This document shows positions 11,207 through 11,413 of a stretch of 14,021 nt of DNA, piece after piece. This DNA is from a virus. The position numbers and the translations under genes were made by a program. Within the stretch, counting starts at the first letter, position 1; every line of letters starts with the position of its first letter. The notes under the pieces are model-generated. The model was not told the DNA's origin and searched no databases. It worked only from the letters and a program-made list of their open reading frames with translations. The stretch lies in the UHGV virus genome UHGV-0240988; one strand, written 5' to 3'.

Positions 11207-11413
11207 GTGGTTGAGTTGATTTTCTCTGCATTGAGGCTTCTCGGTGCTCTGTGGATGGTGGCGACGTTCATTGTAGTTGCTGGCTGTTTTGTCCGGTTGG
11301 TAGGCGAAGGTAAAGACCTGGTTGGTGTGCTTTTCGGTAGCATTTTCCTGTGGGTGATTATCGGTGTTATGCCTGTTGTCGTAGCAAAAGTGGCGTGGCG
11401 TTTTGTGAGTTGA
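11207..11413 (+). CDS. Small hydrophobic membrane protein, 68 aa, predicted two transmembrane helices
   Basis: GTG start at 11207 with GGGGAG SD about 9 nt upstream; sequence MVELIFSALRLLGALWMVATFIVVAGCFVRLVGEGKDLVGVLFGSIFLWVIIGVMPVVVAKVAWRFVS is almost entirely hydrophobic in two blocks. Confidence 0.5.
   Translation: MVELIFSALRLLGALWMVATFIVVAGCFVRLVGEGKDLVGVLFGSIFLWVIIGVMPVVVAKVAWRFVS

Follow-up and report, generated by a model that had tools for sequence, protein, structure and literature searches.

A conserved gene for a predicted two-helix membrane protein at the tR2 terminator of lambdoid and Stx-converting phages

The window, i.e. the whole stretch of 14,021 nucleotides of the virus genome UHGV-0240988 that was analysed, displays a lambda-like gene order comprising N, a cI-like repressor, cro, cII, replication genes (an HTH replication initiator and a toprim primase-helicase), a gene for an HNH-AP2 endonuclease, a short ORF, ninB, ninE and antirepressor genes. 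The short ORF at positions 11207..11413 of the plus strand begins with GTG, comprises 68 codons and specifies the 68-aa product MVELIFSALRLLGALWMVATFIVVAGCFVRLVGEGKDLVGVLFGSIFLWVIIGVMPVVVAKVAWRFVS. The ORF and the features that are needed to describe its location are the following:

3778-4122, minus strand: N
6086-6799, minus strand: cI-like repressor
10548..11159, plus strand: gene for an HNH-AP2 (homing-type) endonuclease (Pfam HNH_3, 8e-16, and AP2; phrog_99)
11158..11191, plus strand: intrinsic terminator tR2, with a 10-bp stem and an 8-nt loop followed by UUUUUAUUU (terminator scan)
11161..11214, plus strand: ninA remnant GLLVIAGLFIWGRVNRG, closed by a stop codon and devoid of a start codon (translation)
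11192..11200, plus strand: Shine-Dalgarno sequence GGGGGAGAG (sequence; aligned with lambda)
11207..11413, plus strand: CDS of the 68-aa two-helix membrane protein (PHROG 1165; WP_076486986.1; 97% identity to HK022 gp58)
11421..11867, plus strand: ninB (orf) recombination mediator gene (Pfam NinB, 1.5e-48)

A TAA codon is located in the same frame two codons 5' of the GTG, which is therefore the first possible start of the ORF. The distance from the GGAG of the Shine-Dalgarno sequence to the GTG is 8 nt, and the GTG start with a good Shine-Dalgarno sequence that the earlier note had proposed for positions 11207-11413 can be read directly from the sequence. An alignment with lambda revealed that the Shine-Dalgarno sequence of the 68-aa ORF is the same sequence as the ribosome site of lambda ninB, and it is kept as GGGGGAG(A/G)G in nearly all related loci. 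The GC content of the CDS (49.5%) matches that of its flanks, and the end of the ORF is separated by 7 nt from ninB, which belongs to the same operon.

The hairpin at positions 11158-11185 has a calculated RNA folding energy of -18.9 kcal/mol, and the sequence AGGCCTGCTGGTAATCGCAGGCCTTTTTATTTGGGGGAGAG is identical in the alignment of the window, lambda, HK620 and an O157 prophage. The lambda copy of this hairpin is situated between ren and ninB, where the G-rich tract that follows it is the ribosome site of ninB, and the annotation of HK620 names the identical hairpin tR2. All loci examined contain it, with one or two differences at most. Both the window and HK620 have TAAATC-GTG and the 68-codon ORF after the G-rich tract, and ninB is found only afterwards. 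The hairpin had previously been taken for the terminator of the HNH gene, an attribution that has to be given up, since hairpin, U-tract and Shine-Dalgarno sequence are identical to lambda tR2 and the ninB Shine-Dalgarno sequence whatever gene is located upstream. The HNH gene itself represents AT-rich DNA inserted after the primase-helicase gene and before tR2. Its GC content is 30-39%, compared with about 49-53% for the flanks, and it ends one base short of the hairpin, with the stop codon directly adjoining the stem. The same cassette was detected in HK022 (gp57) and in some Stx phages. The precise insertion, the recurrence of the cassette and the low GC content are consistent with a homing endonuclease.

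The genes flanking the 68-aa gene vary among the roughly 90 related loci that could be compared:

Upstream neighbour, DnaB-like helicase: ~51 loci
Upstream neighbour, lambda-type Ren: 16 loci
Upstream neighbour, HNH endonuclease: 10 loci
Upstream neighbour, toprim primase-helicase: 7 loci
Downstream neighbour, phrog_343 protein (HK022 gp59): ~52 loci
Downstream neighbour, NinB: ~33 loci

The only constant partners of the 68-aa gene are tR2 and the Shine-Dalgarno sequence. A functional link to the HNH gene was considered and rejected, since that gene adjoins the ORF in so few of these loci. Likewise, the assignment of the ORF to the position of lambda ren is incorrect, as the ORF lies between tR2 and ninB, and Ren is encoded directly upstream of it in the 16 loci listed above and in H-19B. 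Since ren and the ORF coexist, the 68-aa gene is an addition to the region and not a substitute for ren. A separate insertion was noticed in the O157:H7 strain TT12A (L002, ~2449-2600), where 13 nt from the beginning of ninB (ATGAAGCAAATAT) persist after the stop codon of the ORF and genes encoding a DUF7301 protein and Lar are inserted between this remnant and the real ninB. The remnant is the footprint of cargo that was inserted right where ninB starts.

The tR2 region contains a further coding element, as an intact hydrophobic NinA of 27 aa (MTIYITELITGLLVIAGLFIWGRVNRG) spans tR2 in ~79 of 91 loci. Lambda NinA has 26 aa and is connected by ATGA overlaps to ren and ninB. In the window, the HNH insertion has taken the place of the 5' end of ninA, i.e. 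of the first ten codons, so that no start is left; the TGA of ninA overlaps codons 2-3 of the 68-aa ORF here as it does in the ~79 loci. The 68-aa protein is not NinA, even though some rows of the tblastn search are labelled 'ninA': the latter is a separate 27-aa ORF in another frame, the HK620 'ninA' stops 2 nt into the tblastn match, and the two proteins are assigned to separate PHROGs, namely phrog_5907 for NinA and phrog_1165 for the 68-aa protein. The NinA proteins of lambda, P22 and HK620 resemble the 68-aa protein in being hydrophobic, and the two genes adjoin. Natural fusions of NinA with the 68-aa protein, 93-94 aa in length, were found in Salmonella prophages (P0144, P0146, P0149 and P0153). 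The two fusions that were read (P0144 and P0149) arise from the change of a single base within the G-run of the Shine-Dalgarno sequence, and one fusion cluster has been seen on 47 contigs. These fusions may provide a Rosetta-stone hint of a joint function or may reflect the effect of a frameshift on gene calling; by the positive-inside rule, such a fusion would be topologically consistent. Moreover, the tR2 hairpin is located inside NinA (window 11158-11214, plus strand; lambda L005:2068-2148), and ATGA or GTGGNTGA overlaps chain NinA to both flanking genes. A ribosome on NinA would cover the tR2 stem, so translation might modulate termination.

The conservation of the ORF was evaluated with 93 loci drawn from phage records, viral contigs and genomes. 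An intact 68-codon ORF, placed 6 nt after GGGGGAG(A/G)G and directly 3' of the tR2 hairpin, was present in 91 of them, with GTG as the start codon and ATG in the Salmonella phage SPN9CC. One of the two exceptions is a contig end, and the other is H-19B, in which codon 15 is an in-frame TGA. The unannotated H-19B copy (L007, AF034975.3, 2495-2698) carries TGA in place of the GGA of HK620 and is either a pseudogene or the product of an old sequencing error. The 68-aa gene is absent from lambda, and with the H-19B copy broken as well, it is regarded as dispensable.

An ORF of this size might be open merely by composition, or the DNA or RNA might be kept for spacing or structure past tR2 or for an antisense product. 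Within the close clade, the data are compatible with this explanation: the pN/pS ratio of ~0.46 resembles that of some of the remaining frames, 46 of 49 close variants keep the antisense frame -1 open, and the 49 DNA variants specify 40 protein variants that differ mostly by exchanges among V, A, I, L, M and F. Constraint within the close clade therefore appears to be loose. The comparison between clades yielded a different picture. Nucleotide identity drops to 56-65%, but the length, the hydrophobic blocks and six invariant residues stay, the annotated +0 frame has the lowest pN/pS ratio of all six frames in every between-clade comparison, and the between-clade dN/dS ratio is 0.13-0.36 (Jukes-Cantor), with dS being saturated. 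The +0 frame is also the sole frame that is open in all seven divergent clade representatives. The antisense ORFs at 11146..11454 and 11186..11545 (both on the minus strand) were rejected as candidate genes, as they acquire stops in the divergent clades and show higher pN/pS ratios; because between-clade selection favours +0, these overlapping minus-strand ORFs are considered to be by-products of composition. Furthermore, no Rfam family was found at the ORF, and distant homologues of 63-66 aa start with ATG and reside in other phage contexts without tR2. A non-functional ORF is hardly credible in view of these observations, and the pattern of conservation shows that the 68-aa ORF is a genuine gene.

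The protein matches PHROG 1165 over positions 1-68 of 68 (E 2e-34), as do the distant homologues P0131 and P0134. It is 100% identical to the RefSeq entry WP_076486986.1, a hypothetical protein of prophages of E. coli W224N and DETEC-S589; the region as such also matches the prophage of these strains with 100% identity. Another RefSeq entry of the family is WP_000818843.1. The gene product gp58 of phage HK022 (HK022_58) shows 97% identity and is encoded in the same place after tR2. PHROG 1165 and HK022 gp58 represent the same family as the protein of the window, with nothing to set them apart. Accordingly, the protein is already known as an annotated hypothetical protein with a PHROG, and among membrane proteins it is a conserved hypothetical of the ordinary sort. 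PHROGs, RefSeq and the protein collections list no function for the family, and a literature search on the protein and its family found no paper on function. The 68-aa protein has no match in Pfam, NCBIfam or PADLOC, and a comparison of 23 family members with Pfam resulted in sub-threshold compositional matches only, the best values being E 0.0015 for T4SS_pilin and 0.6 for Phage_holin_3_6.

A tblastn search detected the 68-aa protein in 107 phage records, including HK022 (97%), mEpX1, HK75, HK629/630 and mEp235. Many Stx converting phages carry it with an identity of ~86%, HK620, HK633 and mEp213 with 55-58%, and P22-like Salmonella phages with 41-43%. The carriers are siphoviruses and podoviruses alike, and the gene is regarded as independent of virion type and replication module. 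Along with tR2, the ORF was found in at least 537 of 5,426 complete E. coli genomes (~10%, counted at megablast level and for this clade), and tR2 alone occurs in many more of them. A scan of the genome_contigs set yielded 5 loci. The contigs L010, L012 and L013, which were binned as Cellvibrionaceae, Bacillota and Collinsella MAGs, encode versions with 91-96% identity to the E. coli protein; since they are more than 90% identical to it, these three contigs are probably mis-binned enterobacterial phage.

In a large protein collection, the family comprises ~240 clusters at 90% identity, nearly all of 68 aa, and the named clusters are called only hypothetical, phage or membrane protein and originate from Escherichia, Shigella and Salmonella. 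An exhaustive HMMER search of 1.84 billion representatives resulted in only 16 clusters. Four of these are distant members of 63-66 aa with 28-34% identity. The encoding contig could be recovered for three of the four; all three are phage-like and contain runs of small genes, and one represents a clear cI-cro-cII-replication early region. A 375-aa tandem-repeat protein among the HMMER clusters (P0128) looks like a compositional artefact. The homologues are thus 63-68 aa in length, which rules out that the ORF is a fragment of a larger gene, a check that the earlier note had itself suggested. The few longer entries could be explained, the 90- and 77-aa entries being apparent stop-codon read-throughs that run past the usual C-terminus and those of 93-94 aa the NinA fusions described above.

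Hydropathy was calculated according to Kyte-Doolittle with 19-residue windows. The resulting profile has two peaks, at residues 11-29 (2.41) and 41-59 (2.62), separated by a minimum of 0.97 in the loop, which agrees with the previously described two hydrophobic blocks around a short GEGKD loop. The GRAVY value of the protein is 1.67, and the stop-to-stop frame that holds the ORF has a value of 1.74, the highest of the 98 frames of this type with a length of 60 aa or more that the window contains. AlphaFold2, supplied with an alignment of 23 sequences, modelled helices at residues 2-33 and 38-67 connected by a turn at 34-37; with a mean pLDDT of 92.4, this is a confident helical hairpin. Both hydropathy peaks exceed 2.4, and along with the modelled hairpin they support the view that the gene encodes a small two-helix membrane protein. 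The following segments were deduced:

11237..11293, plus strand: predicted transmembrane helix 1, residues 11-29 (hydropathy 2.41; AlphaFold2 helix 2-33)
11294..11317, plus strand: polar loop RLVGEGKD, residues 30-37, predicted to be periplasmic (AlphaFold2 turn 34-37)
11318..11386, plus strand: predicted transmembrane helix 2, residues 38-60 (hydropathy 2.62; AlphaFold2 helix 38-67)
11387..11410, plus strand: conserved C-terminal tail K-x-A-W-R-F-V-S, predicted at the cytoplasmic interface

Residues that are invariant across all members are W16, W49, G53, P56, K61 and W64, and a basic residue at position 10 is likewise conserved. The conserved K/R10 precedes helix 1 immediately and W16 is inside it. 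The loop is conserved as G-K-D(P/L) or, in a more general form, as G-x-D/E-P. Helix 2 contains a conserved LFG in addition to W49, G53 and P56, and according to the helical phase its conserved residues are mostly on one face. The tail of the window protein, KVAWRFVS, consists of 8 residues with two basic and no acidic ones and includes the invariant K61 and W64. Averaged over the 23 family members, the two termini together have a net charge of ~+2 and the loop of ~0. Since the termini are positive and the loop is neutral across the family, this distribution favours a topology with both ends in the cytoplasm (N-in/C-in) and the GKD loop in the periplasm, the charge bias being modest. A Foldseek comparison of the AlphaFold2 model with BFVD and PDB revealed no hit below E 0.9 and only generic helical hairpins, and a profile search of the PDB sequences with the family gave no match.

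A protein of this kind could be a membrane-damaging toxin or viroporin, the hairpin oligomerising to a pore or depolarising the inner membrane in another way, as known for GhoT, TisB or Hok, with shutdown of the host or an aborted infection as the consequence. The high GRAVY value and the lack of a soluble domain are in line with such an activity, as are the small-residue motif G40xxxG44 of the window allele and the conserved helix face, and over-expression of small hydrophobic proteins from phages and prophages is toxic in many cases. However, no similarity to a toxin family was detected in Pfam, NCBIfam, PADLOC or PHROGs, Rfam yielded no antisense RNA or antitoxin partner within positions 11100-11500, where the neighbours are tR2 and ninB, and the gene is frequent and intact in prophages behind a terminator that is leaky by design, which would be costly for a potent toxin. 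We therefore consider a toxin to be rather unlikely.

The size and the two transmembrane helices also resemble class II holins and pinholins, so the protein might contribute to the timing of lysis as a holin, pinholin or antiholin-like modulator. Three of the 23 family members gave sub-threshold matches to Phage_holin_3_6, with E 0.6 as the best value, but for the window protein there was no Pfam or PHROG holin match at E<=1. Moreover, the tail of 8 residues with a charge of +2 is not the charged domain that is typical of holins, and in the window and in the ~90 related loci the gene is part of the early operon, with replication and nin genes as its neighbours, and does not adjoin an endolysin gene. 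The carriers HK022, HK620 and the P22-like phages have complete lysis cassettes of their own. The early-operon position and the short, weakly charged C-terminus render a role in lysis timing very improbable.

With respect to expression, a scan for promoter-like sites on the plus strand between 10300 and 11207 gave no hit, a consensus scan of this type being liable to miss a weak or non-sigma-70 promoter in the upstream gene. A terminator scan of the plus strand detected none at 11186-12129 and hence none between the ORF and ninB. The 68-aa gene is the first gene beyond tR2 in the pR early-right operon and has the ribosome site that is used by ninB in lambda. RNA polymerase modified by N would have to read through tR2, so that the 68-aa protein would belong to the delayed-early products that follow infection or induction, and no 68-aa protein would be made in a repressed lysogen. 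Because no promoter-like site is present upstream, the gene is probably an N-dependent delayed-early gene.

This arrangement bears on the possibility that the protein is a superinfection-exclusion or lysogenic-conversion factor expressed from the prophage, i.e. a moron such as HK97 gp15 or P22 SieA. It is a small inner-membrane protein of temperate phages with a patchy distribution, and HK97 gp15 provides a precedent (PMC3594210). The latter, a member of the YebO family, is likewise a small inner-membrane protein of a lambdoid phage. However, its gene is an independent unit in the tail operon that is expressed by the prophage, whereas the 68-aa gene belongs to the early operon and follows tR2. 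A moron forms a transcription unit of its own that is expressed while the prophage is repressed (PMC3594210), which makes a moron like HK97 gp15 unlikely here: the conserved upstream elements are only a terminator and a Shine-Dalgarno sequence, the scan found no promoter-like site, no terminator separates the gene from ninB 7 nt downstream in the pR operon, and the GC content is like that of the flanks. The presence of tR2 upstream and the lack of a promoter-like site argue against expression in the repressed prophage and hence against a classical prophage exclusion factor. In addition, no homology to the exclusion proteins T4 Imm, HK97 gp15/YebO and P22 SieA was detected in Pfam, PHROGs, PADLOC or by Foldseek in BFVD and PDB. 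A prophage-expressed moron is therefore regarded as improbable.

The deduced properties of the gene are best accommodated by a real, non-essential accessory gene of lambdoid phages, whose protein, as we judge with slightly better than even confidence, binds an inner-membrane target during early lytic growth and either protects the infection or takes over the host. According to the predicted structure, the 68-residue helical hairpin would insert in the inner membrane and exert its effect within the bilayer, where its helices would contact a second copy of the protein or an inner-membrane protein of host or phage. Action inside the bilayer is suggested by the lack of a soluble domain and by the conserved face of helix 2, which is formed by W49, G53, P56, A60 and W64. 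Regarding the more specific roles, the exclusion of competing phage DNA or the neutralisation of a membrane-based abortive-infection effector is put forward tentatively, and the inhibition of a membrane process of the host, for instance in division, transport or energy, is a somewhat more doubtful proposal. We do not think that the protein plays a part in lysis or in the lysogen.

Two described proteins illustrate the proposed type of action. T4 Imm, a small protein of the inner membrane that is produced early, binds the tape-measure protein and thereby prevents secondary infection (bioRxiv 10.64898/2026.03.06.709160). Like the 68-aa protein, it is small, wholly embedded in the membrane and encoded on an early transcript, and its mechanism, the binding of an incoming phage membrane component in the bilayer, is of the kind that would be available to a protein without a soluble domain. 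T4 Imm differs in having four modelled helices according to the preprint, versus two, and there is no detectable similarity in sequence or fold. PhiNM1 Gp11 is an early small membrane protein by which MurG and DivIC are bound and inhibited (PMC11237401). It corresponds to the proposed role of the 68-aa protein as the product of an early gene that binds membrane-associated proteins of the host, but it is staphylococcal, with unrelated host and phage, and no homology was found.

A bolder version of the proposed role, namely a hitherto unrecognised early-lytic membrane effector of lambdoid and Stx phages that is gated by read-through of tR2, acts maybe along with NinA, and excludes rival genomes or disarms membrane abortive infection, is decidedly unlikely.

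Several further features of the window were recorded in the course of the annotation. Downstream of ninB, Rfam matches at gathering level indicated the Hfq-binding sRNA isrK at 12083-12156 (plus strand, 72 bits) and the C4 antisense RNA at 12181-12268 (plus strand, 84 bits), just upstream of a 63-aa ORF at 12322-12513 and two antirepressor genes:

12510-13196: antirepressor gene, P22AR C-terminal
13265-13993: antirepressor gene, KilAC

Judged by these matches, this region looks like an isrK/C4-controlled antirepressor module within the nin region. A module controlled in this manner is reportedly present in Gifsy-1.

On the other side of the window, two overlapping genes at 4495-5424 and 5421-5999 (both minus strand) occupy the slot between N and the cI-like repressor that corresponds to lambda rexAB. 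The 192-aa protein of this slot is a DUF6932 protein with a match (2e-10) to PDC-M63A, which PADLOC lists as a candidate defence protein, and for the 309-aa protein no Pfam or PADLOC match was obtained; the pair may be a prophage-borne defence cassette. Lambda_thermo, the RNA thermoregulator of cIII, was matched at 2826-2884 (minus strand), and the ORF at 2625-2864 (minus strand) that overlaps it matches Lambda Kil at residues 44-74. A 227-aa protein with a nucleotide-modification-associated Nmad5 domain is encoded at 3093-3776 (minus strand) and adjoins N.

The 68-aa gene is thus a common gene at a classic landmark of lambda, where it is the first one after tR2, and many Stx2a-converting phages carry it. 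If a role in exclusion, anti-defence or host takeover were demonstrated, it would fill a blank in the early operon of lambdoid phages, and such a role, if true, could bear on the competition and the spread of Stx phages.
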